Source: Escherichia phage ETEP102. From it: 48,422 nt of DNA. Shown piece after piece: positions 15,533 to 40,474 of the stretch. The position numbers and the translations under genes are program-made. The notes beneath the pieces are model-generated. The model did not search any database. It was not told where the DNA came from and saw only the letters and a list, made by a program, of their open reading frames with translations. Within the stretch, counting starts at the first letter, position 1. Each line of letters starts with the position of its first letter. Where the stretch lies: sequence record OR979723.1; one strand, written 5' to 3'.

Positions 15533-15640
15533 ATGTTGTTATTTTTAGCAGTTATGTCGCTACTACTATTCATCCCACTTTCTTTAGTTGGTTTGATTCT
15601 TCTTATTGGATTCATTAAAGGCGGTCCATCCTGGAGGTAA
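15533..15640 (+). CDS. small hydrophobic peptide (35 aa, single predicted TM helix)
   Basis: GGAGG 5 nt upstream of ATG; MLLFLAVMSLLLFIPLSLVGLILLIGFIKGGPSWR; stop 2 nt before next ATG. Confidence 0.35.
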   Translation: MLLFLAVMSLLLFIPLSLVGLILLIGFIKGGPSWR

Positions 15641-15641
15641 T

Positions 15642-16040
15642 ATGAACGAAGATATTTTATCTTTCATGCGAGGACTTGCTCCGGCATTGAAATCAGTTTC
15701 AGACGAAACGCTTAACGTGTGGATTGACCTAGCCAGGCTTTTCGTGTGCGAAAGCAAGTTTGGCACTGACGCATATAAGGCAACAGGCCTGTACGCCATG
15801 CACCTGATGTTTCTTGATGGAGCTATGAAGGCAGAGAATGAGAGTATTGAGAACTACTCACGCAGGCTGGCAAGTTACTCCCTGACCGGTGAGTTCTCCA
15901 TGACATACGGCAGTGTTACCACAAATACAGATGGAAGGCAGATTACCCAGACCCCATGGGGTAAGATGTACGACATCCTCAACAAGAAAAAAGGCGGCGG
16001 ATTTGGCCTTCTTTCAGGAATGCGTAGAGGTTGTTGCTAA
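15642..16040 (+). CDS. putative head-tail connector/head completion protein
   Basis: 132-aa ORF, ATG 15642 with GGAGG upstream; call by position between capsid and tail genes. Confidence 0.35.
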   Translation: MNEDILSFMRGLAPALKSVSDETLNVWIDLARLFVCESKFGTDAYKATGLYAMHLMFLDGAMKAENESIENYSRRLASYSLTGEFSMTYGSVTTNTDGRQITQTPWGKMYDILNKKKGGGFGLLSGMRRGCC

Positions 16041-16420
16041 TGGTAAACTATGATGAAGTTCAAAGATTAACCAATCAGGGCATCAACGCTTTCTCTGGCA
16101 ATAATGAGATCGGCTTCGATATCATCATCACTGGCGGAGGTGTTCAGATGGTTGATGGCGAAGAAGTCAAAGTGCCCGAGGTTCGCGGGAAAGTTTTCGG
16201 CGCTGTGCGTGCGATCAGTTACCACATGATTGATGGTGAGTCTATCAAGCTGGGTGATAAGCGAGCTTTCTTTTCTAACGTGACGCCGATTGAAAACGGG
16301 ATGATTATCATCCTTGAGGGCCAACATTGGCGTGTCGTGGATAGCCGACCAGTTAACCCAACTCAATCTCACGTTATCGCTTACCGTCCGATACTTCGCA
16401 AGGTGGCTACTCATGGCTAA
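16040..16420 (+). CDS. putative head-tail joining protein
   Basis: TAATG-coupled 126-aa ORF in neck region. Confidence 0.35.
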   Translation: MVNYDEVQRLTNQGINAFSGNNEIGFDIIITGGGVQMVDGEEVKVPEVRGKVFGAVRAISYHMIDGESIKLGDKRAFFSNVTPIENGMIIILEGQHWRVVDSRPVNPTQSHVIAYRPILRKVATHG

Positions 16421-16856
16421 CTACATCGTCAGGAAGTTCCAGGGCGATATAGATAAGTGGATTAAACAGGTTAAATCAGGCCTTGATGACGTAATTCGTG
16501 AGTTCGTCAAGGCTGTTCATGCTGATTTAGTTAAAGGATCACCAGTTGATACTGGTCGTTTCAGGGCTAACTGGCAGATAACATACAACCACATCCCGAT
16601 GTACGCACTGAATGAGTACGATAAATCAGGTAGTAAAACCATCGCGTCAGGCATAAGGACGGCTAACGCATTGCCTTTAGGTCGTGGCGGTGCGGTGACT
16701 ACCATCCACTTTTCCAACATGCTGATATATGCCAATGCTCTTGAGTACGGTCACTCTAAACAGGCTCCCGCTGGCGTGCTTGGCGTGGTTGCGGTAAGAT
16801 TGAGATCCTATATATCGCAGGCAATCATTGAATCAAGGAGAAAAAATGGTTTATGA
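16413..16856 (+). CDS. putative neck protein (HK97 gp10-like)
   Basis: ATG 16413; motif SPVDTGRFRANW resembles that family as recalled; overlaps neighbours. Confidence 0.4.
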   Translation: MANYIVRKFQGDIDKWIKQVKSGLDDVIREFVKAVHADLVKGSPVDTGRFRANWQITYNHIPMYALNEYDKSGSKTIASGIRTANALPLGRGGAVTTIHFSNMLIYANALEYGHSKQAPAGVLGVVAVRLRSYISQAIIESRRKNGL

Positions 16857-17247
16857 CGATTATGATCTGGCTAAGGCGGCTCGCGTCGCCTTGTTCCAGG
16901 AGTTCGGCAGCAGGTTTAAAATAATGGCTGAGAACGTGGAGTTCAAAGAACCTAATGACGGAGGAACATGGCTAAAGTTTGATTACATGCCCGCTGAGAA
17001 AACCTACAAATCCTTGAGTCGTAAGTGCATCAGGATTCGCGGCCTCGTTCAGATTGGCATCGTATTCTCACCTGACACTGGCACTGACGAAGCCCGTAGG
17101 CTGGCGAAAGAAATTGCTAATTTCTTCGAAGATGGTAAAATCCTCTCTGTAGGTTTTATTTTTGAAGGTGCGAGCCAAAAGCCCGTACAGAAATCACAAA
17201 GAGGCTGGTTAATACCGATCCGCTTCACAGTACAACACGACGAATAA
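16846..17247 (+). CDS. putative tail completion protein
   Basis: ATG 16846 with AAGGAG upstream; position before major tail gene. Confidence 0.35.
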   Translation: MVYDDYDLAKAARVALFQEFGSRFKIMAENVEFKEPNDGGTWLKFDYMPAEKTYKSLSRKCIRIRGLVQIGIVFSPDTGTDEARRLAKEIANFFEDGKILSVGFIFEGASQKPVQKSQRGWLIPIRFTVQHDE

Positions 17248-17260
17248 AGGAGCATTAATT

Positions 17261-17935
17261 ATGGCACTTCCTAACGGTTCCCAAGTTTTTATTGAGCAGA
17301 CCCGATCCGCTACCGAGATTGAAGCTACGGCAGTTAGCAACGCAGAAAACCCTGTAGCGACAGTGGCATCAACTACTGGCATTGTTGCTGGTGATTATGT
17401 TCTGGTTCTTGAAAGCGTGTGGGCTTCGTTCAAAAACCGAGTTATGCGAGTAAAAGAAGTAACCCTGAATACATCTCTGACTCTCGAAGGTGACAAGAAT
17501 ACCTCGACGGCGGACACTAACAAGTTCCCAGCTGGCGGCGCGTCAACTCTGGTTAAGATCGAAAGCTGGATTGAGATCCCATGCGTGAGCGATATTGCAA
17601 AATCTGGTGGCGAGCAGCAGTTCTACACCAAGCAGTGTCTATCTGATGACCGTGAAAAGCAGATCCCGACCTTTAAGTCTGCGACTTCCATCGCGTATAC
17701 TTTCGACTTCGACTACGCGAACCCGATCACTCAGCTACTGATTGGTTACGACGAAGACGGCAAGACCCGCGCTATGCGAATGTTTGTTCCGAAGGCAAGC
17801 TATCCGATCCGCACATTCTCTGGCACGCCATCTTTCGATGACATCCCCAATACGGTCATGAACGAAGATGAAACGACCATCCTGACCATCTCACTTGATG
17901 GTAAATATACTCACATGAAAGAGTTTGTGGTGTAA
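17261..17935 (+). CDS. major tail protein
   Basis: 224-aa ORF with AAAGGAG RBS and strong terminator after it, directly before chaperone and tape measure genes. Confidence 0.6.
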   Translation: MALPNGSQVFIEQTRSATEIEATAVSNAENPVATVASTTGIVAGDYVLVLESVWASFKNRVMRVKEVTLNTSLTLEGDKNTSTADTNKFPAGGASTLVKIESWIEIPCVSDIAKSGGEQQFYTKQCLSDDREKQIPTFKSATSIAYTFDFDYANPITQLLIGYDEDGKTRAMRMFVPKASYPIRTFSGTPSFDDIPNTVMNEDETTILTISLDGKYTHMKEFVV

Positions 17936-17938
17936 CAC

Positions 17939-17965
17939 GAGGGGGCTATTGCCCCCTCTTTTTAT
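17939..17965 (+). terminator. rho-independent terminator
   Basis: GAGGGGGC-TATT-GCCCCCTC then TTTTT. Confidence 0.7.
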
Positions 17966-18007
17966 TTGTGATTTAATAGATACTCAATTAACGAGAGGGC
18001 ATTTCAA

Positions 18008-18322
18008 ATGGCTGCAAAATTTAAAGTAACTCTGGGCGCACTGCCTGATTTCATTCTTCCGGTTTCTTTCGTCATGCCAAACGGTGATGAGGCTGAGATT
18101 AAATTCAAGGTTCGCCACAAGAAAGCAAGCGAAATCAAAGCACTATATGACGGAGAGGCGAAGGATTATACCTTTATCAACGAGGTTTGCACTGGCTGGG
18201 ATCTGGAGGATGAGTTTAATTCCGAAAACGCGCAGGCGATTGTTGATCTCTTCCCATCCATTGCACTGGCGCTGGCTCAAGCCTACATGGGCGCTCTCGT
18301 TGGTCAGCGAGTAAAAAACTAA
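18008..18322 (+). CDS. tail assembly chaperone (lambda G-like)
   Basis: 104-aa ORF before tape measure; ends ...VGQRVKN with slippery heptamer in last codons. Confidence 0.6.
   Translation: MAAKFKVTLGALPDFILPVSFVMPNGDEAEIKFKVRHKKASEIKALYDGEAKDYTFINEVCTGWDLEDEFNSENAQAIVDLFPSIALALAQAYMGALVGQRVKN
18313..18319 (+). other. programmed -1 frameshift slippery site A_AAA_AAC
   Basis: X_XXY_YYZ heptamer in zero frame of chaperone ORF 3 codons before its stop; -1 frame is open into ORF 18337-18633. Confidence 0.55.
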
Positions 18323-18633
18323 AAAGGGCGATCCGGTTGATGTTCCAAAAATCACCGACTGATGCAGAGCTTGAAGCGTACGGATTGACCCGTGAAGATT
18401 ACGAGGATGAAGAGCCTGAGATATTAATCTTTGATGAGTCAATGTATCAGTCATGGGAGATATTCAACGCAATGAATACTCAGTGGAGATCATCCGGAGG
18501 CGTCCCTTACGGTCTTGATTATAATGTGTTGCCGATGTTGTTCAGAATCTATAAAATAGACGATGAGGAAATGGCACTCAATGACGTGCGAGTAATGGAG
18601 GGCTTATCCCTACAGCTCATGCACAAAAAGTAA
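18319..18633 (+). CDS. -1 frame extension giving a GT-like chaperone fusion
   Basis: Frame of ORF 18337-18633 is -1 relative to 18008-18322 and open from the slippery site (LKRAIRLMFQKSPTDAEL...). Confidence 0.45.
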   Translation, partial: LKRAIRLMFQKSPTDAELEAYGLTREDYEDEEPEILIFDESMYQSWEIFNAMNTQWRSSGGVPYGLDYNVLPMLFRIYKIDDEEMALNDVRVMEGLSLQLMHKK

Positions 18634-18635
18634 TA

Positions 18636-18658
18636 AGCGCCTACGGGCGCTTTTTTTG
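18636..18658 (+). terminator. hairpin plus T-run, terminator/attenuator
   Basis: GCGCC-TACG-GGCGC then TTTTTTT, then GGGGG and ATG 18671. Confidence 0.5.
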
Positions 18659-18670
18659 TTTGGGGGTTTT

Positions 18671-21600
18671 ATGACAGATAAACTTGCAGGGCTATCCCTT
18701 GGTGTTGACGTTTCCCAGGTTGATAGGGCGGTGAAATCACTGGAGAACTTCTCCAAGGCTAACAATAAGGCGGCTGGCTCTCTCTCTGATTTTGTCGATA
18801 ATGAACAGGTAGCAAGGGTGAAGGCAAAAGAGCTTGCGGCTGAATTGGCACGACAGCGTGCCGAGTTCCAGAAGCTTGAGGGAGTCATTGACCCGACAGC
18901 TAGCAAAATGGCACGACTTAAAACTGCTAGTGAGCAACTTGATGCGGCGTGGCAAAAGGGAGTTGTACCTGATAAAAAGTTTTTCGAATTAGGTGAAATG
19001 CTTGAGGCGCAGAATAACGCGCTCATCAAGTCACGCTCTATATTGACAGCAGAGGGGCGTGCTGCTGCGGAGAATGCCAAGCAGAAAGCCAGAGCCAAAG
19101 CTGATGCCGATAGCTTCATTCGAAGCCTTGAGCGTCAAGCACAAGCGGCTACGATGACGAAGCAAGAAATGCTTGAGCTTAGGGCAGCTGAGTTGGGCGT
19201 ATCGGACAAAGCGGCTCCTTTGATTTCTAAGTTAAATCAGCAAACGGAAGCATTCAAACTCAGCGGAATCTCAGCGGGTGAATACCGAAACGCAATGAAG
19301 ATGCTACCTGCGCAGATTACTGATGTTGTAACATCAATGGCGACTGGGATGCCGATATGGATGGTTGCCATCCAGCAGGGCGGACAGATCAGCGATTCAT
19401 TCGGCGGAATTGGTAACGCGATGCAGTTAGCTAAGGATGGCGTGATTGATTATATATCATCTATTACAGAGCTTAAATCAGCATTCGCAGATGTAAGAAC
19501 CTTGGGTCAAGATGCGATTGCCAGATTCGGACGTGCGGCAACGATTTTCGGTGGCGGAATTTTCACTGCGGTTGCTGCTATTGGTTATGCGGCTTACTCC
19601 TCATACTCTGAGCTGAGTGAGCTTCAAAGCGCTATCGTTCTGAGCGGTGGATATGCGGTTCAATCAGCGTCCGAAATGGATACATTGACCGATGCGATCA
19701 CCGAAAACAGCAAGGCAAGCGGAGGGGCGGTTAATGACATCGCTGTATCTATGGCTAAGTCTGGCAAGTACACATCCGATCAAATCAAAATCATCACCGC
19801 ATCCACGGCAGATTGGGCGACAGTAACAAGCACAAGCGCAGATAAGATCCTTGCGGAGTTCGATAAGATTGCAAAAGATCCGGTTAGCGGACTGATAGAG
19901 TTAAACAAGACATATAACTTCCTAGAGAAAGGCCAGTTAACATACATCAACAAGCTTAAGAAAACGGAAGGTCAAACTGCGGCGGTTACTGCTGCGACGA
20001 AAATTTTCGCCGATGTAATGGATGATCGAATTGCAAAGCTTGCGGAATCAGCAAACCCACTAGAGAAAATGTGGTGGAATATCAAGAAATGGTCTAGCGA
20101 CGCGTGGGGTTCCGTTTCCGACAGGACGCTAGGGGCGCTAAATCTGATCACCGATGTAGTTGCTGGCACGGTTGAGCAGGTCAAGGTGATCCTCAACTAT
20201 GGAGATCAGTACATTGGTGAGTTCGTCATTTCAGCTACAAAGGCGATGCAAGGGATTCCTGGCATGGGCACTTTCGGTCAATCGGTGATCGACGAGCAGC
20301 AGAAAATTGTTGACGCAGCCAAAAAACAAAACGAGGAGTTGTTAAAATCCATCGCAGAGCGCGATGCTAGGATCAGAAAGGGGGAAGCTGGATACCTTGA
20401 AGCGGGCAAGAATGATAAGGTAGGAGACGGTTATTCATCAAAAACAAAAGAAGCTGTAGACAAAGAGGCCGAGGATCTAAAAAAATTAAACAAGGAAAAG
20501 AAATATTCAGTCGATCAGGGGGTTAAAATCACCGAACAGTACGAAATGGATATTGTCGCCTTGCAGTCTCAGCTAAAAGTATTGCAGGAGCATAAGACCA
20601 TCAACGACAGCATCAGCCAGCAGCGCAAAACGCAATGGAACGAGCAAGCGCGAATCCTGATTCTGGAGGGTATTGCGGCGGATCAGAAAGGGAGAGCGCT
20701 GACTCAGGAAGAGAAATCAATCCTTTTAAACAAGTCCAAGATTCTAGACCTTGCGGAACAGAAAGCGGCGTTGGGGGATCAGATTGTTGTCCAAGAGCGG
20801 TTGAACAAGTTGCAGGACGATTCAGAGAAGTTCGTGAATAAGACGCTGGCGGCAACAAGATCGCTCAATGATACCAAGGCGATGGGCGACAGGGACGCAA
20901 AACGCTACGCTGAACGAGAGGCTATGAAAGCCAATTGGACGAGCAAGGGCGGGAAAGATACTGATCCAGCATTCAAGAGAATGATTGATGAGCAGGATAA
21001 GTACTACGCGGCGGAAGATGCGAAGCGTGCTGACTGGTTGGCTGGGGCTGAAAACGCTTTTGAAAACTACGGCGAAGCGGCAACGGATATGTATACCAAC
21101 GTAGGAGGCATTGCAACTAATGCTCTGACTGGTTTGTCTGATATGATGACTGAGTTTTTAACTACCGGTCAGGCCAACTTCGCTGACTTCGCAAAGAGCA
21201 TTATCAGCCAGATTATTAAGATGATCACGCAGATGGTAATCTTCAACTCAATCTCCGGTATGATGGGAGGCTCGGCTGGTGGTAAGGGATTCTCCTTCGC
21301 TAACTCAGGATGGTTCGCTGCTGGCGGGTACACTGGAGACGGTGGGAAATATGAGCCTGCTGGAACAGTCCATAAAGGTGAGTTTGTCATGACCAAGGAA
21401 GCGACAAAGCGTATCGGCGTTGATAACCTTTACAGAATGATGCGAGGTTATGCGAATGGCGGTATGGTTGGCGGAGCTTCTAGAGGTGGGGGCGGAAGTG
21501 CAATCATGGCTGGCGGAGTGACAATCGGGAGTATCCCTGTTAGCATCAATAACAGAAGCGATCCGAATGGAATGGAGCAGGGCGTGAAAATGATTTTCAA

Positions 21601-21673
21601 GCAAATGATTCAGGAGTCGTGCTCTCAAGGCGGCGAGGTTTACAACTACATCAACGGCAAAGCAGGAGCGTAA
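18671..21673 (+). CDS. tail tape measure protein
   Basis: 1000-aa largely alpha-helical protein after chaperones; Gly-rich C-terminus. Confidence 0.8.
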   Translation: MTDKLAGLSLGVDVSQVDRAVKSLENFSKANNKAAGSLSDFVDNEQVARVKAKELAAELARQRAEFQKLEGVIDPTASKMARLKTASEQLDAAWQKGVVPDKKFFELGEMLEAQNNALIKSRSILTAEGRAAAENAKQKARAKADADSFIRSLERQAQAATMTKQEMLELRAAELGVSDKAAPLISKLNQQTEAFKLSGISAGEYRNAMKMLPAQITDVVTSMATGMPIWMVAIQQGGQISDSFGGIGNAMQLAKDGVIDYISSITELKSAFADVRTLGQDAIARFGRAATIFGGGIFTAVAAIGYAAYSSYSELSELQSAIVLSGGYAVQSASEMDTLTDAITENSKASGGAVNDIAVSMAKSGKYTSDQIKIITASTADWATVTSTSADKILAEFDKIAKDPVSGLIELNKTYNFLEKGQLTYINKLKKTEGQTAAVTAATKIFADVMDDRIAKLAESANPLEKMWWNIKKWSSDAWGSVSDRTLGALNLITDVVAGTVEQVKVILNYGDQYIGEFVISATKAMQGIPGMGTFGQSVIDEQQKIVDAAKKQNEELLKSIAERDARIRKGEAGYLEAGKNDKVGDGYSSKTKEAVDKEAEDLKKLNKEKKYSVDQGVKITEQYEMDIVALQSQLKVLQEHKTINDSISQQRKTQWNEQARILILEGIAADQKGRALTQEEKSILLNKSKILDLAEQKAALGDQIVVQERLNKLQDDSEKFVNKTLAATRSLNDTKAMGDRDAKRYAEREAMKANWTSKGGKDTDPAFKRMIDEQDKYYAAEDAKRADWLAGAENAFENYGEAATDMYTNVGGIATNALTGLSDMMTEFLTTGQANFADFAKSIISQIIKMITQMVIFNSISGMMGGSAGGKGFSFANSGWFAAGGYTGDGGKYEPAGTVHKGEFVMTKEATKRIGVDNLYRMMRGYANGGMVGGASRGGGGSAIMAGGVTIGSIPVSINNRSDPNGMEQGVKMIFKQMIQESCSQGGEVYNYINGKAGA

Positions 21674-21676
21674 TAA

Positions 21677-22024
21677 ATGGCCCTAGACGTGTTTAATTGG
21701 TGCGTACAGGTTCAGGATGGTGGCGGCGTAATGACCGTCACCAACAATGACAGACAGGTGCAATTTGGTAATGGTTTTCGTCAGGTTGCATCGTCTGGAT
21801 ATAACACTGAGCGACGAGAGTATGCGATAAGTTATGTGGGAAAGGACTGGATTGAGGTTAGAGAGTTTTTAAGATCTCACCGACTAAAAGCCTTCGCCTT
21901 CACCCCGCCGGAAGACAGGATCGGCGTTTTCCTACTGAAGCCTGATACGCTGAATACTCAGCCAATAGGTCGAGGTCTTCTTGTTGTAAAATGCACCATT
22001 GTGGAAACATTCACAGCGGTGTAG
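21677..22024 (+). CDS. minor tail protein (lambda M-like)
   Basis: 115-aa ORF immediately after tape measure; size and position. Confidence 0.65.
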   Translation: MALDVFNWCVQVQDGGGVMTVTNNDRQVQFGNGFRQVASSGYNTERREYAISYVGKDWIEVREFLRSHRLKAFAFTPPEDRIGVFLLKPDTLNTQPIGRGLLVVKCTIVETFTAV

Positions 22025-22027
22025 AAT

Positions 22028-22051
22028 AAAGCCTCCTAGCGGGGCTTTTTT
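22028..22051 (+). terminator. hairpin plus T-run, terminator/attenuator
   Basis: AAAGCC-(loop)-GGCTTT then TTTT, followed by GGAGG and ATG 22067. Confidence 0.45.
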
Positions 22052-22066
22052 ATTGGAGGTAATCAC

Positions 22067-22813
22067 ATGACACCTAAGTTTGAAAACGTCTTGCAGGGGC
22101 TTTTCCCTGGCGAGATTATGACACTGATTGACGTTGACGGGACGAAGTTCGGCGCTCAGGTCTACCGATTCCACAACGAGAACATCCAGTTTACGCCGGA
22201 GGAGATTCTCGCAGCCACGCAGCCAGGCGGGAGCCTTCAGCCAAAAACAATCACCTTTCAGGGAAATGAATATGGCGCTCGTCCTTTCGGCATATCAGGC
22301 ATTGACCTAAACGGTAACGGAAAGGCAGGAAAACCACAGTTAACCTTATCCAACCTTGATAGCCGAGTATCGGCCCTTATCCGATCCTACAACGGCATGA
22401 TGCAGGCTAAGGTGACTATCTGGATAACATCACGAGAAATGCTCGGCAGCAACGGCGATGTTTCCCCCGGTGACTTCAGAAAATACGTTTACTACGTTGA
22501 GAGACCGAACTTTGTGGATCAGAACGTTGCGCGATTTGATCTGACTTCACCATACGACATGGACGGAATCATGATTCCACCGCGAGTTACTCAGAGTGTT
22601 TGTTTTTGGGCACAGCGTGGCTGGTACAGAAGCGGCAACGGTTGCGGTTACAACGGAAGCAGGATGTTTGACAAAGACAACAATCCAGTAACAGATCCAT
22701 CCAGGGACGTATGCGCGGGAACTGTAACGGCATGCAAGATAAGGTTCGGCTCTGAAAACGAATTAGATTTCGGCGGCTGTGCGGTAGCATCACTTGACAG
22801 GAAAAACCAATGA
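22067..22813 (+). CDS. minor tail protein (lambda L-like)
   Basis: 248 aa; C-terminal Cys cluster CFWAQ...CGYNG...CAGTVTAC as in gpL-type proteins. Confidence 0.7.
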   Translation: MTPKFENVLQGLFPGEIMTLIDVDGTKFGAQVYRFHNENIQFTPEEILAATQPGGSLQPKTITFQGNEYGARPFGISGIDLNGNGKAGKPQLTLSNLDSRVSALIRSYNGMMQAKVTIWITSREMLGSNGDVSPGDFRKYVYYVERPNFVDQNVARFDLTSPYDMDGIMIPPRVTQSVCFWAQRGWYRSGNGCGYNGSRMFDKDNNPVTDPSRDVCAGTVTACKIRFGSENELDFGGCAVASLDRKNQ

Positions 22814-23535
22814 TTAACGGCAAAATCAAGATGGCAATCTTCGAACATGCGAAATCAGTATACCCCAATGAATGCTGCGGCGTGGTAACTCAAAAAGGCC
22901 GAGTGCAAAAATACTGGCCCATTGACAACGTTCACTCTGAACCGGAAAAAGGATTCCAGCTTGACTCTGTGCAATACGCCTGCGTTGATGATAACGCTGA
23001 CCTAACCACGATCGCCATTGTTCACAGCCACACCGGAGACGGGGCTACGACCTTACCAAGCGCTCACGACTTGTGCGTATTGAATGAGATGGAATTGCCT
23101 TGGGTGATTGTCAGTCTGCCGGAAGGTGACATGAGAATTGTTCATCCTGAAGCCATGCCTCTGATTGGTCGTCCTTGGTCGCTTGGATCTTTCGATTGCT
23201 GGGGACTGGTTATGGCATGGCACAAAGAGCACGGCGTAATCCTGAATGACTTCCGAAAGCCTTACGAGTGGTGGAAGCCTGAATATGGTGAGAATCTCTA
23301 CCAGGACAACTACATTAAAGAGGGTTTTATTGAAACCGGAAAGGATCCTGAACCTGGCGATATGATCATCATGAAATTGCAAGCTGAGGTATGGAACCAC
23401 GCGGGGATTTACCTTGGAAATAATCAACTCCTGCATCATGCATTTGGTAAGCTGTCAAAGACAGATATTTATTCAGGATGGTTCCAGGAGCATACGGTAA
23501 TGGTATGTAGGCATAAGGAGTTAGAGAAATGTTAA
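22810..23535 (+). CDS. tail assembly protein (lambda K-like, JAB/MPN plus NlpC/P60)
   Basis: HSHTGDGATTLPSAHD metalloprotease-like motif and CWGLVMAW...H cysteine peptidase-like motif. Confidence 0.7.
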   Translation: MINGKIKMAIFEHAKSVYPNECCGVVTQKGRVQKYWPIDNVHSEPEKGFQLDSVQYACVDDNADLTTIAIVHSHTGDGATTLPSAHDLCVLNEMELPWVIVSLPEGDMRIVHPEAMPLIGRPWSLGSFDCWGLVMAWHKEHGVILNDFRKPYEWWKPEYGENLYQDNYIKEGFIETGKDPEPGDMIIMKLQAEVWNHAGIYLGNNQLLHHAFGKLSKTDIYSGWFQEHTVMVCRHKELEKC

Positions 23536-33536: not shown

Positions 33537-33559
33537 AATAATCAACTCCTATATTGTTG

Positions 33560-33579
33560 TTTAGCACGAATTGCTAAAG
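33560..33579. promoter_or_regulatory. TAGCACGAATTGCTAAAG motif copy (orientation ambiguous)
   Basis: Perfect palindromic core between primase gene terminator and tail fiber start. Confidence 0.4.
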
Positions 33580-33603
33580 TGCAGTATAGCATTGCTTTAG
33601 GCA

Positions 33604-33628
33604 TAAAAAAACCTCCCGAAGGAGGTTA
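33604..33628 (-). terminator. rho-independent terminator for primase gene
   Basis: Minus strand: ACCTCC-TTCG-GGAGGT then TTTTTTT; hairpin overlaps stop codon. Confidence 0.6.
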
Positions 33629-34549
33629 GTTTAGCAAGTCGTTTGCTTTGTAAACTTTCTTTCTAATGCCTGTTTTAAATGACTTGCCATCATTTGGGAT
33701 GACTACACCAACAGACCTGTCATCAGCAATAGAGAGTATATCAAAATCATGATCACGACAAGCAATCCTGAAGCTGCGGGACTTGTCTCGGTGAATAACC
33801 ATTTCCATGTTATAACAGGAGAAAGCAACAAACACCTCACGCCCCCCAGTAGCAATATGAACACGCACGCCATCAATAAAATTATCAACAACATAAGTGT
33901 AACCATCAACCTGCCAAGAACCAATGACAGCAACAGAATCACGAGTGTAATCACCAGCAAGGAATTTAACATTTGAATCTCCATCAATAAACATTAAGTT
34001 GCAGAACTCATTACCAATCCCATCCTCGTAAACCATCGAGCAAGGTACGGCATGAATCATTGATCCATCCTTAGCTATACCAACATCGAATCCATCATCA
34101 AGATAAATACCCTCATATGTTGTGAGTGGGCTTGATTCAACTCTTACAGTCCGCTCCATGACTTCAAGAACTTTTTCATGATCTACTTGAGCGCCCATTT
34201 TGTAATGCTGAGTCCTTGATGCTTGCTTGTTTGCCTTATTAACCACTTCTACAGGGATAAGGTTTAACCACTCACCGAGAACATCGATACATTCACTAAA
34301 TGACTCACCTCGCAGCTTCTGGACCCAAATAATACCATCTCCTGAACCGCATTGGTTGCAGATAATTCCACCATCACCATTTTCGCTAACTTTGTTGGTC
34401 CATCTCGCGCGATCGCTTCCTCCGCAATAAATGCATGGCTGGTGTTTTTTGGTCTGGAAAAACTTAGGATCTGCGCCACATATATTGATAAGCGCCTTAT
34501 CCCATAGGCCGCGCATTCTTGGTAAAACCTCTCTCTTATCGTAGTGCAT
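33626..34549 (-). CDS. putative DNA primase (zinc-ribbon plus TOPRIM-like)
   Basis: CIYCGG...CNQCGSGDG zinc-binding pair near N-terminus, Asp/Gly-rich acidic core; next to helicase. Confidence 0.5.
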   Translation of the reverse strand: MHYDKREVLPRMRGLWDKALINICGADPKFFQTKKHQPCIYCGGSDRARWTNKVSENGDGGIICNQCGSGDGIIWVQKLRGESFSECIDVLGEWLNLIPVEVVNKANKQASRTQHYKMGAQVDHEKVLEVMERTVRVESSPLTTYEGIYLDDGFDVGIAKDGSMIHAVPCSMVYEDGIGNEFCNLMFIDGDSNVKFLAGDYTRDSVAVIGSWQVDGYTYVVDNFIDGVRVHIATGGREVFVAFSCYNMEMVIHRDKSRSFRIACRDHDFDILSIADDRSVGVVIPNDGKSFKTGIRKKVYKANDLLN

Positions 34550-34606
34550 ATAAATAATCTCTTAACAAATAAAAAAGGTTGCACCGATTATGGCACAACC
34601 TTAATT

Positions 34607-35080
34607 TTACTCTTTAGCTTTTCGTGCTGCTTCGTTAGCGGCCTTAATCTTGCGCCACGATCGACATTCTGGCTTCGTAGCTAATTCAGCATCAGTAACA
34701 ACGCGCAGCATGTGACGTTTTTTGCACCGGAGTGTCAGCGGCTTTCCGTTGCCATCGAATTGCAGATCCGGTCGGCAAAAAGTCGCGCGAAAACCCTCTC
34801 CAGTTCGCTTGTATCGGTTGTGCGCCAGTTGAGCGCCTCGGGCCGACATCATGCCCCTCTTGAACCATTCCTCAACCGCCTGGCGACTAACCTTCAGTTG
34901 CTTTGCGATATTGGCCTTCGTTCCGTAGAAGTCGAGAACCATCTCCAGTCGCGCCAGAAGCCCGGCCTTTACTTCATCTTTTAAAACGTAGTAACCTGAA
35001 GGTCGTTTTCGTTGCTTTTTGTCTTCAGTTCGGACTGTTCCGTTGTTGCCGTTAATGGTTCGCTTGTCGACTGCATTCAT
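34607..35080 (-). CDS. HTH DNA-binding regulator
   Basis: Helix-turn-helix ANIAKQLKVSRQAVEEWFKRG; basic tails; divergent from helicase gene. Confidence 0.5.
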   Translation of the reverse strand: MNAVDKRTINGNNGTVRTEDKKQRKRPSGYYVLKDEVKAGLLARLEMVLDFYGTKANIAKQLKVSRQAVEEWFKRGMMSARGAQLAHNRYKRTGEGFRATFCRPDLQFDGNGKPLTLRCKKRHMLRVVTDAELATKPECRSWRKIKAANEAARKAKE

Positions 35081-35092
35081 CTCATCACCTCA

Positions 35093-35111
35093 ATAGCACT
35101 TTTTGTTAAAC
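35093..35111 (+). promoter_or_regulatory. ATAGCACTTTTTGTTAAAC motif copy
   Basis: In divergent intergenic region; 21 nt to TATTAT (35130-35135); helicase ATG 35173. Confidence 0.45.
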
Positions 35112-35172
35112 ATTGGTTTCGATGGCTGTTATTATAACGTCAATCGAACGAACATGAAAGGCATTTAATACT

Positions 35173-37275
35173 ATGGCTATGCGCATTAAATCCATCAAAA
35201 AACAGATAGAGGAACTCGGTCCTCAGAAGATAAAAGAAATTCAGGATAAGTTTACCTTTGGTGACATGGTTCCGTATGAGTACCAGTGCGTGATGTATGA
35301 TGAGATCGGCAAGCGCATTGCTCGCTATAAGCATCCATTCATTGTTAAGGCTTCCGTATCTGCTGGTAAAACAATTGGCTTTGCCATGATCGCGTCTCGA
35401 GTTAAAGAGATGGGACTTTCAATGATGATACTTGCGCGCCAGGGCGACATCGTCGCTCAGGATAGCGAGGAGATCTCAAACTTCGGCGTTCCAAACTCTG
35501 TTTACTGTGCTGGCCTGAATACAAAATCCGCATACTTCCCTATAGTTGTAGGATCGGAAGGTTCAGTGGCGAACGGTCTATTCAAGGCTCTGGGTGACTT
35601 TACTCCAATGGTGCTGGGTATTGATGAATGTCACCAGGTAGACTGGGAAGACCTTGCTGCAGCCATCGGCAATGAAGAAACGATTGAGATGATGCTAACT
35701 GAAAAGGATGAGCGAGTATTCATTGATTACCCTAAAAATCGCGATGGTTATGTCAATGGTTATCTTAATGGCGTAGAGGTTGGCGCCCAGGTAATGGATA
35801 AGCAATTGCTAATCAGCCGGAAGACTGGCGAGCCTGTGTTGGGAACAAAGCGAAGCCAATACACGATCATAATCACTGAGCTAATGAGGCGCTGCAAAGA
35901 GAAGAATGGCAAGGAATTAAGGATATTCGGGATGACTGGTTCTGAGTTCAGAGGAACAGCTCCAATCGTAGTTGACAACCCAAAGCTACCTGGATTCTGG
36001 CGTGAGCAGGTGACTAATATTGACACAAATTACCTTATTGAGTTCGGATCTGTGGTTCCGACTGTTTTTGGTAGTGTCGGTGATGCTGGTTATGATCTTG
36101 ATGAGTTCAAGGCATCAAGTCAGGACGGCACGGCTGACTTCAGCCAGAAAGATATGAAGGCGATGGAAAAGAAAATCCATGACAACGCCAGCATGACCAA
36201 GCGAATCATGGAAATGGTTGTTGAGGAGGCAAAGAAGCGAAACGGGGTTCTTATTACATGCTCAGGGCAGCGCCACTGCAAAGAGGCAGCGAGCTATCTG
36301 CCACCTGACGCCACCTATGAGATCATCACCGAGAAGACAAACACCAAAAAGCGACAAGCAATACTGGAAGCGGCTAACCGTGGTGAAATTAAATACATTT
36401 TCCAGGTTATAGCGCTAACTACTGGAGTTAACGTTCCGTTTTGGGATTTCTCAGTCATCCTGCGTAAGATTGGTTCTCTTACACTACTGATCCAGCTTCT
36501 CGGTCGCGGAATGCGATTGCTTAAACCGTGGCAAAAAGCAATGGGTATGGTTAAGGAAGATCACCTTGTGTGGGATTTCGCGGGTTGCATGGACGAGTTA
36601 GGTCAGTTATACTTTGACCCCATCCTTGAGGAATCACAGTATCAGCGCCGCTTTGACGGTAAGAAAGAACCGAAGAAATGTGAGTTGTGCGGAACTGAGA
36701 ACAGTTTTTACGCTCGCCGTTGCATTCACAGAGACGAAAACGGCAATCGTTGTGAGTATTTCTGGAAGTCTCGCGTATGTGAAGACCAGATTGATGATCG
36801 CACTGGCGAAGTGCTCGCTAAGGGTTGCGGAACTGAGAATGACGTAGTTGCTAGAATATGCCGCTGCTGTGACGTGAGCTTGAAAGACCCCAATGACAAT
36901 CTGACTGGTAAGGCTTACACAAAAAACGACTGGTGCACAGTTAATAGCTTTGAAGTGACGCTGACGAGAAATCAGACTGGTATTCTTTATCGTTACGACC
37001 TTACCGACTCGATGGGGGTTAACTTCATTGCTTATGAAAAATTTTTCCCTCAATCAACGGCGCAGGTATGCCACACGATATGGAAACAAAAAGGTGTATT
37101 GCCTCATGTGCATGACAGCAAGATCGCAAAGTTAATGGCAGCTTACAGAAGTGCGAAAATGATTTTAAACAACGCTCACCACATAGCACATCCGGTGCGG
37201 GTAACACACCGAAAAAATGCAAAAGGTGATGATATTATTTCACGTAAAGATTTCGGATTGGATGGTAACTTATGA
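35173..37275 (+). CDS. SF2 DEAD/DEAH-box helicase with C-terminal Cys-rich domain
   Basis: Walker A SAGKT, Walker B GIDECHQ, C-terminal CELCG...CIHRD...CRCC cysteine clusters. Confidence 0.75.
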   Translation: MAMRIKSIKKQIEELGPQKIKEIQDKFTFGDMVPYEYQCVMYDEIGKRIARYKHPFIVKASVSAGKTIGFAMIASRVKEMGLSMMILARQGDIVAQDSEEISNFGVPNSVYCAGLNTKSAYFPIVVGSEGSVANGLFKALGDFTPMVLGIDECHQVDWEDLAAAIGNEETIEMMLTEKDERVFIDYPKNRDGYVNGYLNGVEVGAQVMDKQLLISRKTGEPVLGTKRSQYTIIITELMRRCKEKNGKELRIFGMTGSEFRGTAPIVVDNPKLPGFWREQVTNIDTNYLIEFGSVVPTVFGSVGDAGYDLDEFKASSQDGTADFSQKDMKAMEKKIHDNASMTKRIMEMVVEEAKKRNGVLITCSGQRHCKEAASYLPPDATYEIITEKTNTKKRQAILEAANRGEIKYIFQVIALTTGVNVPFWDFSVILRKIGSLTLLIQLLGRGMRLLKPWQKAMGMVKEDHLVWDFAGCMDELGQLYFDPILEESQYQRRFDGKKEPKKCELCGTENSFYARRCIHRDENGNRCEYFWKSRVCEDQIDDRTGEVLAKGCGTENDVVARICRCCDVSLKDPNDNLTGKAYTKNDWCTVNSFEVTLTRNQTGILYRYDLTDSMGVNFIAYEKFFPQSTAQVCHTIWKQKGVLPHVHDSKIAKLMAAYRSAKMILNNAHHIAHPVRVTHRKNAKGDDIISRKDFGLDGNL

Positions 37276-37769
37276 TTATAAACTTTGTCGAATACAAAGA
37301 TGGTGGGCTCTACTGGACTAAACCGTCAGGGCCAAGGGCTAGAGTTAGCATTGGATCAAGGGTAGGTCACGTAAATCGTGAAGGCTACAGGGTATTCAAG
37401 TTCGAAGGCGCTCACCTAAAGGAGCATAGGGTGATATGGTATATACATAATGGTGAAATACCAGAAGGGATGGAGGTTGATCACATAAATCACGAAAGGG
37501 ATGATAATAGAATTTCAAACTTAAGACTAGTTAGCAGATCCGACAACATGAAAAATACATCAATAAGAAAGTCGAATAGTAGCGGATTTACTGGTGTTAG
37601 TTGGTGCTCAACCAGTAAAAAGTGGAAGGCTCAGATACAAGTAAACGGAAAGAAAATATCGTTAGGTTACTTTAGTGATATTGATTTAGCTATAAGTGCA
37701 AGAACCGAGGCGAATATTAAATATAACTTCCACGACAATCATGGTGGCAAAAATGGCTATAAAAGATAA
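37272..37769 (+). CDS. HNH homing endonuclease
   Basis: EVDHINHERDDNRISNLR core and TGVSW...WKAQIQVNGK tail, paralogous to 8236-8748; ATGA overlap with helicase stop. Confidence 0.8.
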   Translation: MIINFVEYKDGGLYWTKPSGPRARVSIGSRVGHVNREGYRVFKFEGAHLKEHRVIWYIHNGEIPEGMEVDHINHERDDNRISNLRLVSRSDNMKNTSIRKSNSSGFTGVSWCSTSKKWKAQIQVNGKKISLGYFSDIDLAISARTEANIKYNFHDNHGGKNGYKR

Positions 37770-38184
37770 AGGTGACTACCTGGAGTATTACACTCCAGAC
37801 AAAACGGATACGTGGACTGAGAACAAGCACCAGGTCGACTGCGTAACCTGGACAAAGGTTAGGCATGGTGAGTTATTGTTCTGGCACGCTGTTAATGAGA
37901 ATAAAAAACACATTCATACCGCTATAAAGGATGCTCAGAGCGGGTTATTGAAGGGTGTTAGTGACTTTGTATTCCTTCTCGGTCCGTTCGGTAAATACCC
38001 GTTTGGGGCCATAGAATTGAAGAGGGTAAATAAGAGCGGAAAAGGCAAAGCGTCACCAGTCAGCAAGGAGCAGAAAGATTTCCTTCGTCTCGTTCGTGAG
38101 CGTGGCGGTTTCGCGGCGGTGGCGTACGGCCAGGAAGAATATAAGAAAGCGGTTCATGATATGCTGAATAGCACGAATTGCTAA
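37753..38184 (+). CDS. VRR-NUC-type PD-(D/E)xK nuclease
   Basis: GVSDFVFLL ... GAIELKR arrangement; ATG 37753 (track start 37696). Confidence 0.5.
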   Translation: MAIKDKGDYLEYYTPDKTDTWTENKHQVDCVTWTKVRHGELLFWHAVNENKKHIHTAIKDAQSGLLKGVSDFVFLLGPFGKYPFGAIELKRVNKSGKGKASPVSKEQKDFLRLVRERGGFAAVAYGQEEYKKAVHDMLNSTNC

Positions 38185-38186
38185 AG
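38168..38186 (+). promoter_or_regulatory. ATAGCACGAATTGCTAAAG motif copy
   Basis: Encodes last residues NSTNC of upstream gene; 22 nt to TGTATTAT (38204-38211); leader CATCGAAACGAAG; ATG 38251. Confidence 0.5.
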
Positions 38187-38250
38187 ACGAATCGGTGAGG
38201 TGGTGTATTATCACTTCATCGAAACGAAGTGACCAACTAAGGGAATCAAA

Positions 38251-38523
38251 ATGAAAAAGTCAATCATCGCTTTACTGGCAGTTTTGGCAATGGCAGGTTG
38301 TGCTGAAGACACTAAATTCTACGATTGCGGTAGCGAATCTTTCACAGTAACTAAGTCTCAAATTGTGTCAGATAAAGGCGTTATCATTGAACGTGAAGGC
38401 GATCACTACGAACTGCAAACTTTCTTGGGAAAGGCAATTTACAACGTGACTGAAAGTCAGGTAAACGTTAGCGTTGGCGGGTTCGTTGCTGTCAATAACT
38501 GCAAAGTAACTGAGGTTGAATAA
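38251..38523 (+). CDS. putative lipoprotein (90 aa)
   Basis: MKKSIIALLAVLAMAGC signal peptide plus lipobox. Confidence 0.5.
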   Translation: MKKSIIALLAVLAMAGCAEDTKFYDCGSESFTVTKSQIVSDKGVIIEREGDHYELQTFLGKAIYNVTESQVNVSVGGFVAVNNCKVTEVE

Positions 38524-38524
38524 T

Positions 38525-38656
38525 ATGTGGAATGTATATATTGATGAAGATATGTATTACTCATTTGAAAATAAAGATGATGCATATTATTTCGCAAGTG
38601 TTGTTATCAATCAAGGTAAAGAGTGCCTTGTTAAATTTGAGACTGAGGTTGAATAA
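38525..38656 (+). CDS. small hypothetical protein (43 aa)
   Basis: ATG 2 nt after upstream stop; last 15 nt ACTGAGGTTGAATAA identical to the 3' end of the preceding gene. Confidence 0.25.
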   Translation: MWNVYIDEDMYYSFENKDDAYYFASVVINQGKECLVKFETEVE

Positions 38657-38658
38657 AG

Positions 38659-39387
38659 ATGATCGAATCAGACGACAAATATACTCATGACGAATTCGTT
38701 AGCTTTGAACAGATTGAGCGTGAGAACTTCGTGGCAAATGCCCTCGTTCCTGGTTACGGGCACTACCAAGCAGTTAAGCCTGACACATTTTATCATGTAA
38801 CTGGAAAACGATACGCCGGAAGTAAGACACCTGACGCAGTAAGAGATCTTTGGGCCACCGACAGGGAGCTGATCTCATGGATGGAGTCGCGTTATGGAAA
38901 GTATGACATCGACGCCGCCGCCAGCGCTAACAATGCGGTTTGCGAAAAGTTCTATAGCGAGCAATTGAACTGCCTTAAGATCTGGTGGGGCAGAAATAAG
39001 CACATATGGCTTAACCCTCCTTACTCACATCCAGATCCTTTCGTTAAGAAAGCGATTGAGCAGATGGAGCACGGGAACCAGATTGACATGCTCTTGCCTG
39101 GCGATAACTCGACGGCGTGGTTCGCTGAGGCGAGACGCAATGCGGCTGAGATCATCTGGATTGAGGCAGAGATAACAGAAATTGACCAGCAGGAATACTG
39201 CCGAACAGGACGACTAGCTTTCATATCTGGACTGGCCGGAAAGCCTGTGGATGGAAACAATAAAGGATCTGTCATCTTCGTCATGCGAAAGCTGAAAGAA
39301 GGTGAGGAACAGAAAACGACGTATGTTAGCGTCTCTGAGATTTGCCCTGGCGTAAGCCGAAAGAAACCACGTAAGCGGAGTGTTTAA
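38659..39387 (+). CDS. dam: DNA N6-adenine methyltransferase (Dam-like)
   Basis: Catalytic NPPY motif (WLNPPYS) and context typical of phage Dam methylases. Confidence 0.8.
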   Translation: MIESDDKYTHDEFVSFEQIERENFVANALVPGYGHYQAVKPDTFYHVTGKRYAGSKTPDAVRDLWATDRELISWMESRYGKYDIDAAASANNAVCEKFYSEQLNCLKIWWGRNKHIWLNPPYSHPDPFVKKAIEQMEHGNQIDMLLPGDNSTAWFAEARRNAAEIIWIEAEITEIDQQEYCRTGRLAFISGLAGKPVDGNNKGSVIFVMRKLKEGEEQKTTYVSVSEICPGVSRKKPRKRSV

Positions 39388-39388
39388 G

Positions 39389-39619
39389 ATGGAAAAGTTG
39401 CAATTTGATTTAACTGAGCAGGCTCAGTTCCTTTTGTTTCGCGGTCTTGTTTGCACGGCTCTTACAAAGGCTGGGTTCAAGGGTGATGCTTGGGTATTCT
39501 CAAATCTTGACATGTCATTTGAAGAGGTCCAAGGCACTCCATTTGAATCATGGTCAAGATCAATAGCAAAAGATCTCGCAGACTATAAGCGCGATTGCCC
39601 TGAGGATTTTCACGAATAG
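39389..39619 (+). CDS. hypothetical protein (76 aa)
   Basis: ATG 39389 with GGAG upstream. Confidence 0.4.
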   Translation: MEKLQFDLTEQAQFLLFRGLVCTALTKAGFKGDAWVFSNLDMSFEEVQGTPFESWSRSIAKDLADYKRDCPEDFHE

Positions 39620-39634
39620 CACGAATTTCTAAAC
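39616..39634 (+). promoter_or_regulatory. ATAGCACGAATTTCTAAAC motif copy
   Basis: Overlaps TAG stop; 22 nt to TGGTATACT (39651-39659) in hairpin ATACCAGC/GCTGGTAT; ATG 39690. Confidence 0.5.
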
Positions 39635-39689
39635 ATACCAGCCGCTGTGCTGGTATACTTCTTTCACGCCAACGAAACGAGGAATCAAC

Positions 39690-39923
39690 ATGAAAAAGCA
39701 ACCTTTTGTTACTCACAACCACGCAGCATACCGTAACAAGGTTTTATTTCCGCACCTGCTTCGCCTGGCTAACGATAGCGCAAAGGACGCGATCGCACTT
39801 GGTAAGGACGGCGGTCTGGACGAGGTTATTGCGGTGACTTATCTCAAGGGCGCTTATGGTCACTTGCCAGTTGCTGACTATCAGGCTATGTCGGGGAGCT
39901 TTGACATTTATGGTAACTGTTGA
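39690..39923 (+). CDS. hypothetical protein (77 aa)
   Basis: ORF with ACGAGGAA RBS. Confidence 0.4.
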   Translation: MKKQPFVTHNHAAYRNKVLFPHLLRLANDSAKDAIALGKDGGLDEVIAVTYLKGAYGHLPVADYQAMSGSFDIYGNC

Positions 39924-40155
39924 GGTTGGGCGTCAGGCAGTGTGGACGCACTGCAAAGAAGCCGGAATAAGTGAAGACATCGCGCTTATATCCAAGTATT
40001 TTGATATCAAAGACATATGCGTCATATTCAACGGTAAGATGACGTATATACATGAAAGGCCGCGTAAGCTGATCAGAGTTCCTGCAACTCCTGTGAAGAT
40101 TGACTACAAGGCTTGCATTCAGGCGACAAAAGACGCCGCGAGGAGATACAAGTGA
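39910..40155 (+). CDS. hypothetical protein (81 aa)
   Basis: ATG 39910 overlapping upstream gene end (track start 39856). Confidence 0.35.
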   Translation: MVTVEVGRQAVWTHCKEAGISEDIALISKYFDIKDICVIFNGKMTYIHERPRKLIRVPATPVKIDYKACIQATKDAARRYK

Positions 40156-40403
40156 ATTTACCAGGGCTTGATTTTGACGCTGGAATTTATCCTACGTGTA
40201 GCAATAATGATGAGACGTTCGCAATTATCCATTTCTCTGACTGGTTGCCTTCAGACTTCGAAGATGTGCCATGTTCGCGCGGCGGCGGGTATCGACTGAT
40301 GTATTTCAGCCCGTCAACTGGTATGATGGTTCCAAGCGAATCAGAGATAGCAGGCGAGGCGGTTGAGCCAAATACTTTGACAACATGGTTGAAAAAGATT
40401 TGA
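40113..40403 (+). CDS. hypothetical protein; start uncertain (GTG 40152 possible)
   Basis: ORF in track; possible GTGA-coupled start. Confidence 0.3.
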   Translation: MHSGDKRRREEIQVNLPGLDFDAGIYPTCSNNDETFAIIHFSDWLPSDFEDVPCSRGGGYRLMYFSPSTGMMVPSESEIAGEAVEPNTLTTWLKKI

Positions 40404-40474
40404 TGCGCTGCTTAATTGCTGTATTATTGCCGCCGATAATTGGTTTTATTATCATCTACTTAATAACACGATAA
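40403..40474 (+). CDS. very small hydrophobic peptide (23 aa)
   Basis: TGATG-coupled ORF MRCLIAVLLPPIIGFIIIYLITR in the 80-nt gap before the next gene. Confidence 0.25.
   Translation: MRCLIAVLLPPIIGFIIIYLITR

Follow-up and report, generated by a model that had tools for sequence, protein, structure and literature searches.

The 48,422-nucleotide (nt) sequence of Escherichia phage ETEP102 (record OR979723.1), analysed here over its whole length and hereafter referred to as the window, belongs, as judged by megablast and blastn, to a T1-like siphophage of the family Drexlerviridae and contains two very short open reading frames (ORFs), ORF1 (15533–15640) and ORF2 (40403–40474), encoding hydrophobic peptides of 35 and 23 amino acids (aa), respectively. 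Both occupy gaps on the coding strand, the + strand, which holds all of the genes surrounding them. An earlier note, made from the sequence alone, had proposed that the two are single-helix membrane peptides overlooked in annotation, which could represent either membrane modulators or artefacts of AT-rich spacers. Our analysis suggests that ORF1 and ORF2 are probably genuine translated genes for single-pass inner-membrane micropeptides, with ORF2 being a core-like component of the entire family and ORF1 an accessory one. The best genome-scale match to the window is CJ19 (88.5% identity over 74% of a 24-kb query); the right-hand early region displays 87%–95% identity to Nouzillyvirus phages, such as ESCO41, PH1062 and XT34, and the segment bearing ORF1 is closest to Rtp, a member of the Braunvirinae (73%–80% identity).

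ORF1 (+ strand; ATG at 15533, TAA at 15638–15640; MLLFLAVMSLLLFIPLSLVGLILLIGFIKGGPSWR) is preceded by a T1 gp46-like gene (DUF7444, phrog_2716; 15188–15490, + strand; Pfam PF24231, E = 1.9e-19; PHROG 2716), a homologue of rtp28 and T1 ST46, and by an intrinsic terminator-like hairpin with a T-run (15496–15523, + strand; stem 15496–15515, loop TTCG, then TTTTGT), recognized by a consensus scan and a minimum-free-energy fold. Downstream lies the head–tail adaptor gene (DUF4054, T1 gp45 homologue; 15642–16040, + strand; Pfam PF13262, E = 6.9e-19), the relatives of which are described as adaptor or virion structural proteins. Thus, translation, the hairpin scan and the DUF4054 match all bear out the earlier placement of a 35-aa ORF between a terminator and a head gene. 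A Shine–Dalgarno (SD) motif, GGAGG, can be read at 15524–15528 (+ strand), 4 nt (CAAT) before the ATG; the presence of the motif stands and the 5-nt spacing originally given for it was, hence, essentially right. This motif is part of a 12-mer, GGAGGCAATATG, which recurs at 15633–15644, and the SD of the adaptor gene, again GGAGG, is read at 15633–15637 (+ strand), within the last codons of ORF1. The TAA of ORF1 ends 1 nt before the adaptor ATG (15642), and in phage CY1 the corresponding ORF overlaps the adaptor ATG. A consensus scan uncovered no promoter-like site between 15490 and 15533, and the upstream terminator hairpin is the only stable RNA structure of the region. A mosaic junction was located at approximately 15741–15907, within the adaptor gene: the sequence from 14500 to 15907 is Rtp/Braunvirinae-like (~73%) and that from 15741 onwards is ESCO41/Nouzillyvirus-like (81%). 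Therefore, ORF1 either came on, or sits in, a head segment of the Braunvirinae type.

ORF2 (+ strand; ATG at 40403, TAA at 40472–40474; MRCLIAVLLPPIIGFIIIYLITR) follows an 83-aa gene (phrog_4596, T1 ST17-like; 40152–40403, + strand; match to PHROG 4596 over the full length, E = 1e-30), homologues of which are annotated as coding sequences (CDSs) in PH1062 and ESCO41. The TGA of the phrog_4596 gene (40401–40403) shares its A with the ATG of ORF2, so that both the 23-aa ORF and its TGATG overlap, as put forward in the earlier note, are confirmed. At its other end, the ORF2 stop is embedded in the SD of the next gene (TAAGGA; AAGGA at 40473–40477, + strand, read from the sequence 7 nt before the ATG at 40485). 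That gene (40485–41627, + strand; phrog_704, PHROG 704 E = 7.9e-153) is the homologue of T1 ST16 and encodes a helix-turn-helix (HTH) metallophosphoesterase described as a ‘DNA repair exonuclease’; it yields weak PdeM and sigma-70 region 4 matches and has homologues in 2040 phage records. Both ORFs are, accordingly, physically interlocked with the ribosome-binding site (RBS) of the downstream cistron. An in-frame ATG at 40385 would extend ORF2 to 29 aa, and this longer form is annotated in PH1062; HazelMika and T1 conserve only the equivalent of the ATG at 40403. A scan of the window against Rfam yielded no match at either ORF.

Hydropathy sets the two peptides apart from the coding potential of the window as a whole. 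Among the 561 six-frame ORFs of 20–60 aa, ORF1 and ORF2 rank first and second in 19-residue Kyte–Doolittle hydropathy (2.89 and 2.79), with only five ORFs reaching 2.5. The AlphaFold2 model of ORF1 consists of one helix spanning residues 2–30 (predicted local distance difference test score, 91), and its charged residues Lys29 and Arg35 lie at the C-terminus, such that the positive-inside rule probably predicts an N-out/C-in topology. By the same rule, ORF2, with an N-terminal Arg/Lys followed by ~20 hydrophobic residues and an interfacial Tyr, is probably oriented N-in/C-out. The proposal that both are single-helix membrane peptides is, hence, supported by hydropathy in the two cases and, for ORF1, also by the structural model.

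To define the distribution of ORF2, loci were collected by anchoring on the neighbouring exonuclease gene (80 IMG/VR loci, 79 of which include the upstream sequence). A hydrophobic ORF of 22–26 codons, ending 0–14 nt before the exonuclease ATG, is found in 75 of the 79 Drexlerviridae loci. In T1 (NC_005833), the homologue MKLYFAVVLTPLISFSVMYFIIM (40740–40811; 23 codons) starts with an ATGA that overlaps the ST17 stop and ends inside TAAGGA, in a 78-nt ST17–ST16 gap that is left unannotated in RefSeq. Rtp encodes MKSLILVALVQLFSFTILYFMVMN and the Klebsiella Webervirus phages encode MRYIAILFTAILFTIAIINYAIQLG; the latter region is matched by 328 Klebsiella phage records and, among the matches listed, only the two flanking CDSs are annotated. 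Further homologues are present in Vilniusvirus HazelMika and in the distant Kyungwonvirus ESP2949-1, the latter with a GTG start; the GTG is used by one lineage and ATG by nearly all other family members. Across lineages, the start either overlaps the upstream stop (TGATG, ATGA, TAATG) or lies 4–17 nt past it and is then accompanied by an SD-like motif, as in the Webervirus and MWRL… lineages (8–17 nt, own SD), and in most lineages the stop falls inside the exonuclease SD (TAAGGA). Lineages also vary in the gene upstream (…WLKK* versus …KKYYK*) and in its frame offset to the ORF2 ATG (0, 1 or 2). Because the upstream gene, the start spacing and the frame offset all vary, ORF2 is to be regarded as an independent cistron. 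The exonuclease partner can also be separated from it: in XT34 (survey locus L012, ~545–785), ~240 nt separate the micropeptide ORF from the annotated start of the exonuclease, compared to ~10 nt in relatives, and an HNH homing endonuclease is annotated in the corresponding neighbourhood of P818, indicating that the pair can be split by insertions.

Despite this breadth, the family has remained practically invisible. Searches of Pfam-A, PHROGs v4 and NCBIfam r20 gave no match for ORF1, ORF2 or 23 ORF2-family members beyond noise at E > 0.05. Ten exact peptide look-ups in a collection of 15 billion proteins returned a single entry, WKV16907.1 from the Nouzillyvirus PH1062 (29 aa; a singleton cluster). 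This ‘hypothetical protein’, MVEKDL-MRCLIPVLLPPLIGFIIIYLLTR, is a direct orthologue of ORF2 and is likewise located between the phrog_4596 gene and the exonuclease; it differs in being annotated from the upstream ATG that distant relatives do not conserve, and has no assigned function. The description of ORF1 and ORF2 as unannotated consequently holds for nearly all public records, including the RefSeq entries of T1 and Rtp, and fails only for the 29-aa form in PH1062. In the literature, we found no description of ORF1 or ORF2 and no proteomic evidence for either peptide, and no paper in the library searched mentions both Drexlerviridae and ribosome profiling. On comparative grounds, ORF2 defines a predicted new, practically unannotated, Drexlerviridae-wide family of micropeptides and behaves as a core-like gene.

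Could such frames merely be chance openings in T-rich intergenic spacers, translated to no purpose? Both regions are indeed AT-rich (GC content of 0.36 for ORF1 and 0.33 for ORF2 versus 0.46 for the window), a 23-codon frame stays open in 16%–53% of composition-matched shuffles of the ORF2 regions, and the two ORFs are missing from nearly all annotations as well as from Pfam, PHROGs and NCBIfam. However, the ORF2 frame is kept at one position in at least 12 divergent lineages, for which the joint probability of an open frame is ~1e-7 when the 12 are treated as independent. These lineages differ at 25–36 of the 69 nt and are saturated at synonymous sites (synonymous divergence, dS, ≥1), and length, hydrophobicity and position are nonetheless retained. 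The composition is specific to the frame, with T accounting for 58% of codon position 2 versus 27% and 31% of positions 1 and 3, a bias seen in every lineage, and position 2 is the most conserved codon position. Particular residues are preserved as well: a Tyr occurs within the last eight residues of all 45 unique sequences, encoded by TAC in 25 and TAT in 20 of them; the frequent mid-helix Pro is specified by all four Pro codons; and an Arg or Lys usually occupies residue 2 or 3. The inter-lineage ratio of non-synonymous to synonymous divergence (dN/dS) is ~0.2–0.55, with dS saturated. Together with the hydropathy ranks of the two peptides and the behaviour of ORF1 described below, these patterns render chance openings very unlikely and strongly disfavour them for ORF2, for which the artefact reading raised in the earlier note is rejected; the conservation of the reading frame in related phages, named there among the checks, was found for ORF1 and ORF2 alike.

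One feature of the upstream gene suggests a different kind of explanation. Its last codons contain a dnaX-like, shift-prone motif, G_AAA_AAG (40391–40397), from which the −1 frame enters ORF2; among the lineages compared, the motif is confined to Nouzillyvirus and Vilniusvirus. In E. coli, ribosomes are known to slip at the Lys site A_AAG (dnaX). ORF2 might, accordingly, constitute a C-terminal extension of the 83-aa protein, appended by programmed −1 frameshifting to yield a membrane-anchored isoform, considering that the heptamer lies 6 nt before the ORF2 ATG and that, in HazelMika as well as in the window and other Nouzillyvirus phages, the −1 frame reads through into ORF2 without a stop (...WLKK/DLMRCLIAV...). 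Yet the heptamer is absent from T1, Rtp, Webervirus and the other lineages, the upstream gene and its offset to the ORF2 ATG vary as described above, the Webervirus and MWRL… lineages start ORF2 well past the stop with an SD of their own, no stimulatory RNA structure is found downstream, and AAAAAG probably serves only to encode a conserved Lys-Lys. A frameshift fusion is, thus, extremely improbable and is rejected on comparative grounds.

The distribution of ORF1 is entirely different. Anchoring on the adaptor gene (80 IMG/VR loci), we found the cassette of ~109 nt only in the window, Rtp and CY1; in T1, SU57, OzMSK, EC3a and 79 of the 80 IMG/VR loci, the adaptor SD and ATG come immediately after the terminator. 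The hairpin preceding the ORF1 slot is conserved across Drexlerviridae, being annotated as a terminator in T1, SU57 and EC3a and recurring in the remaining adaptor loci that were sampled. All three carriers keep the ORF1 frame open (MLLFLAVMSLLLFIPLSLVGLILLIGFIKGGPSWR in the window, MLLFLAVMSLLISIPLAFVGLILLIGFIKGGASWR in Rtp, where the ATG is at 13899, and MSLFLAVMSVLLFIPMSLVGLILIAAFINGDLFRRFYE in CY1); it is annotated in none of their records, with that of CY1 stretching the adaptor gene into the ORF1 region. Third codon positions hold 10 of the 15 differences between the window and Rtp (binomial P = 0.0085), amino acid replacements are mostly conservative (hydrophobic for hydrophobic), and dN/dS amounts to 0.13, 0.36 and 0.32 for the three carrier pairs (Nei–Gojobori method, NG86). 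In a relocation test, in which the observed substitutions were randomly re-placed and trials with equally few replacements and no stop were counted, P was 0.005 for the window versus Rtp and 0.08 and 0.06 for the other pairs; a stop codon arose in 27%–47% of the trials, which speaks against a frame that is open by chance in three phages. Nucleotide identity between the window and Rtp is 86% in ORF1 (dS 0.5), compared to 67% in the gp46-like gene (dS 1.3) and 62% in the adaptor gene (dS saturated). That ORF1 is more conserved than its flanks is likewise at odds with chance and suggests either that the cassette has spread horizontally in recent times or that an additional constraint acts at the nucleotide level. 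An artefactual origin is, hence, unlikely for ORF1 too, and the ORF is best described as a putative lineage-restricted accessory micropeptide cassette in the late head operon; as most relatives lack it, it is dispensable for virion assembly.

Two other accounts of the ORF1 region were considered. A 132-aa antisense ORF (15217–15615, − strand) runs across most of ORF1 and the terminator into the DUF7444 gene, and shares the third codon positions of ORF1. It is unlikely to be the real gene behind the conservation and is probably spurious, being truncated in Rtp and frameshifted in CY1; it is further disfavoured by the distance of its ATG from the nearest upstream AGGA (16 nt) and by its position antisense to a Pfam-supported gene. 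Tandem duplication of the 5′ end of the adaptor gene was suggested by the 12-mer GGAGGYAATATG, copies of which flank the ~109-nt insert at both edges, and by BLAST placing both insertion edges on the same SU57 segment. This origin is unsupported, because neither local nor ATG-anchored alignments were significant against shuffles (P mostly 0.1–0.9, the best being 0.03 among 12 uncorrected tests). Searches for additional carriers gave no homologue: a 40-aa, TTG-extended ORF1 used as a protein query found none in the 15-billion-protein collection, DNA pattern scans of IMG/VR returned Rtp and one chance match only, and a single metagenome pattern scan produced 24 chance matches and no homologues.

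The main rival to the view that the peptides themselves matter is a cis-acting translational relay, whereby ribosome transit across the 80–110-nt gap, ending on the SD of the following gene, couples the exonuclease (in the case of ORF2) or the adaptor (in the case of ORF1) to the upstream cistron, and the peptides are by-products, their hydrophobicity being tolerated or resulting from the need for unstructured, U-rich RNA. The interlocked signals fit this scheme well, as ORF2 begins on or next to the upstream stop and, in most lineages, ends within the exonuclease SD, and ORF1 terminates immediately before, or in CY1 within, the adaptor start. The RNA of the ORF2 region is also unusually unstructured (z = +2.8, folding worse than all 200 shuffles), the amino acid sequence of ORF2 diverges rapidly, and most relatives manage without ORF1. 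A relay leaves several features unexplained, however: the U-richness of ORF2 is found at codon position 2 only, the conserved Tyr and Pro survive synonymous codon changes, the length is fixed at 22–26 codons with a conserved N-terminal basic residue, and a purely relaying sequence has no need for a hydrophobic helix long enough to cross a membrane. Moreover, other genes of the window phage are joined by direct overlap, without a bridging ORF, and in SU57-type phages the adaptor SD comes right after the terminator. On balance, we consider the relay unlikely.

The extreme hydrophobicity of the peptides invites comparison with toxins and holins. Type I toxins of the Ibs, ShoB and TisB kind are small and extremely hydrophobic, and their loci, including those of IbsC, ShoB, TisB, Hok and Ldr, comprise an antisense small RNA, a promoter of their own and a structured, translation-blocked mRNA. 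ORF1 and ORF2 resemble the IbsC, ShoB, TisB, Hok and Ldr peptides in being very short and extremely hydrophobic, and might by analogy depolarize or permeabilize the inner membrane, contributing to host shut-off or lysis timing. In addition, ORF2 is located ~1.45 kb upstream of the lysis cassette, which consists of a putative 73-aa holin gene (41924–42145, + strand; assigned by its position after a terminator at 41898–41917 and before the endolysin, with no PHROG match at E ≤ 0.001), an endolysin gene (42219–42704) and an Rz-like spanin gene (42680–43069), the latter two matching PHROG families. A 2026 pangenome study (PMC13164509) describes exonuclease, holin, endolysin and spanin genes as a persistent module of Drexlerviridae (508 of 522), in which the holin is a pinholin and membrane potential governs the release of the signal-arrest-release (SAR) endolysin; a term search of the paper revealed no mention of the ORF2-type ORF. 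Nevertheless, no minus-strand promoter-like site was detected near ORF1 or ORF2 by a consensus scan, which was the only method applied, and no RBS-sequestering mRNA structure was found, the ORF2 region being poorly folded and that of ORF1 containing only the upstream terminator hairpin. Both ORFs are embedded in operons rather than forming stand-alone loci, two genes and the terminator at 41898–41917 separate ORF2 from the holin and thereby place it outside the lysis cassette, ORF1 resides in the head operon, the charged domain found at the C-terminus of holins is missing from the peptides, and early expression coupled to neighbouring genes speaks against a lethal toxin. A toxin-like or holin-like role is, therefore, highly improbable.

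A more elaborate scenario, which is quite unlikely, envisages the ORF2-type micropeptide as the Drexlerviridae-specific membrane part of the exonuclease–pinholin–SAR-endolysin–spanin module, possibly an antiholin-like partner restraining the pinholin or the SAR anchor, or a membrane tether for the HTH-phosphoesterase; separately, ORF1 would be a recently spread mobile micro-cassette of 109 nt that inserts at SD–ATG junctions. If true, the module-linked ORF2 peptide would govern when lysis occurs or how host DNA is handled throughout the T1-like phages.

Bacterial single-pass membrane micropeptides, such as KdpF, CydX/AppX, AcrZ, MgtS and PmrR, offer another parallel. Each of these modulates a larger membrane protein, is 20–50 aa long and crosses the membrane with a single helix; their genes, often located in or beside operons, escape annotation, and their sequences can diverge strongly provided that the helix is retained. 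The likeness concerns a possible mode of action and not family membership: the 23 ORF2-family members, when searched against NCBIfam and Pfam, showed no sequence resemblance to them, and ORF1 and ORF2 are encoded by a phage. Small-gene families have reportedly been predicted in phage genomes by Fremin, Bhatt and Kyrpides in 2022, in Cell Reports. Phage small-gene families and catalogues of small ORFs (PMC11364881) represent the same general class, namely, conserved phage ORFs of less than 50 aa, many of them with predicted transmembrane segments, and the ORF2 family, at 22–26 aa, is too short for the usual gene callers. ORF1 and ORF2 would belong to the known class of phage small membrane proteins. 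T1-like phages also carry annotated hydrophobic proteins of 36–57 aa, among them the small early protein ST73 of T1 (36 aa), to which ORF1 shows no similarity. With the morons of lambdoid phages, ORF1 shares its status as an extra cistron between genes that are adjacent in relatives, and its GC content is lower than that of its surroundings (0.36 versus 0.46); unlike a moron, it has neither promoter nor terminator of its own, the sole terminator nearby belonging to the preceding gene and being present in phages without ORF1, and it measures 109 nt only, bounded by the repeated SD–ATG 12-mer.

If ORF1 and ORF2 are genuine micropeptide genes, as we favour, ribosomes finishing the phrog_4596 gene would reinitiate at the overlapping TGATG of ORF2, with ATGA, TAATG or a separate SD serving the same purpose in other lineages, and would stop at the TAA embedded in the exonuclease SD (TAAGGA). 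Because its start and stop are interlocked with the neighbouring genes, the ORF2 peptide would be made in the same early/middle operon, extending from dam to the exonuclease gene, and roughly in step with its neighbours. Beyond bridging two cistrons, it may bind a membrane protein of host or phage origin and so act within the membrane. ORF1, in turn, would be expressed with the late head genes through read-through of a leaky terminator, relying on its strong GGAGG SD and ending on that of the adaptor gene. Following the analogy with KdpF, CydX and AcrZ, both peptides would most likely be transmembrane-helix modulators of a membrane protein.

Several observations weigh against this interpretation. 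We infer the translation and the membrane location of both peptides rather than observe them directly. At the protein level, ORF2 evolves fast (dN of 0.4–0.65 between lineages), and among its closest relatives dN is about equal to dS, an estimate based on 3–5 substitutions only; given this rapid evolution, the constraint may largely amount to ‘any hydrophobic helix’. In the window, ORF2 has no SD of its own and relies on coupling. The ORF is absent from three of the 79 loci, and in one further locus the peptide lacks a canonical start, so it is not strictly essential. Outside Drexlerviridae, the exonuclease homologues of Dhillonvirus and Jerseyvirus, as well as those of the autographivirus Nifs112, the casjensvirus RcLkye and Vibrio phage K79, have no upstream micropeptide; the pairing is, accordingly, specific to the phage family rather than inherent in the enzyme, and the idea that ORF2 is functionally tied to the exonuclease itself is rejected. 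The case for ORF1 comprises three sequences only, its lower synonymous divergence relative to the flanking genes could also reflect nucleotide-level constraint, and the codon-position test by itself leaves the strand undecided, because the antisense ORF shares the third positions. Finally, ORF1 was predicted by no gene caller within the 15-billion-protein collection.

Three related IMG/VR Drexlerviridae contigs (L060–L062), in which ORF2 is lacking from the site ~50 nt before the exonuclease ATG, retain the …YWLK… upstream gene and the exonuclease and represent natural knock-outs suited to comparison with carriers. Elsewhere in the window, we noted two more ORFs of less than 60 aa, at 1427–1540 (+ strand, 37 aa) and 708–827 (+ strand, 39 aa), both with SD-like motifs and neither hydrophobic, the former being ATGA-coupled to the gene that ends at 1427. 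The early region also carries a tRNA-Arg gene (anticodon TCT; 6979–7056, + strand), the sole Rfam or ARAGORN match in the window.

Drexlerviridae, the family of the classical model phage T1 and of the Klebsiella Weberviruses, find wide use in phage therapy. Because a near-universal gene is missing from the reference annotations, PHROGs and Pfam, pangenome and ‘core gene’ analyses of Drexlerviridae (e.g., PMC13164509) are incomplete. The presence and absence of ORF1 in Rtp and SU57-type phages, respectively, provide a natural comparison for studying an accessory late micropeptide. The ORF2 family, being conserved, coupled to its neighbours and naturally absent from a few lineages, offers a clean and genetically tractable case for 23-residue phage membrane peptides, and the function of the ORF2-type peptide is now directly testable in T1.

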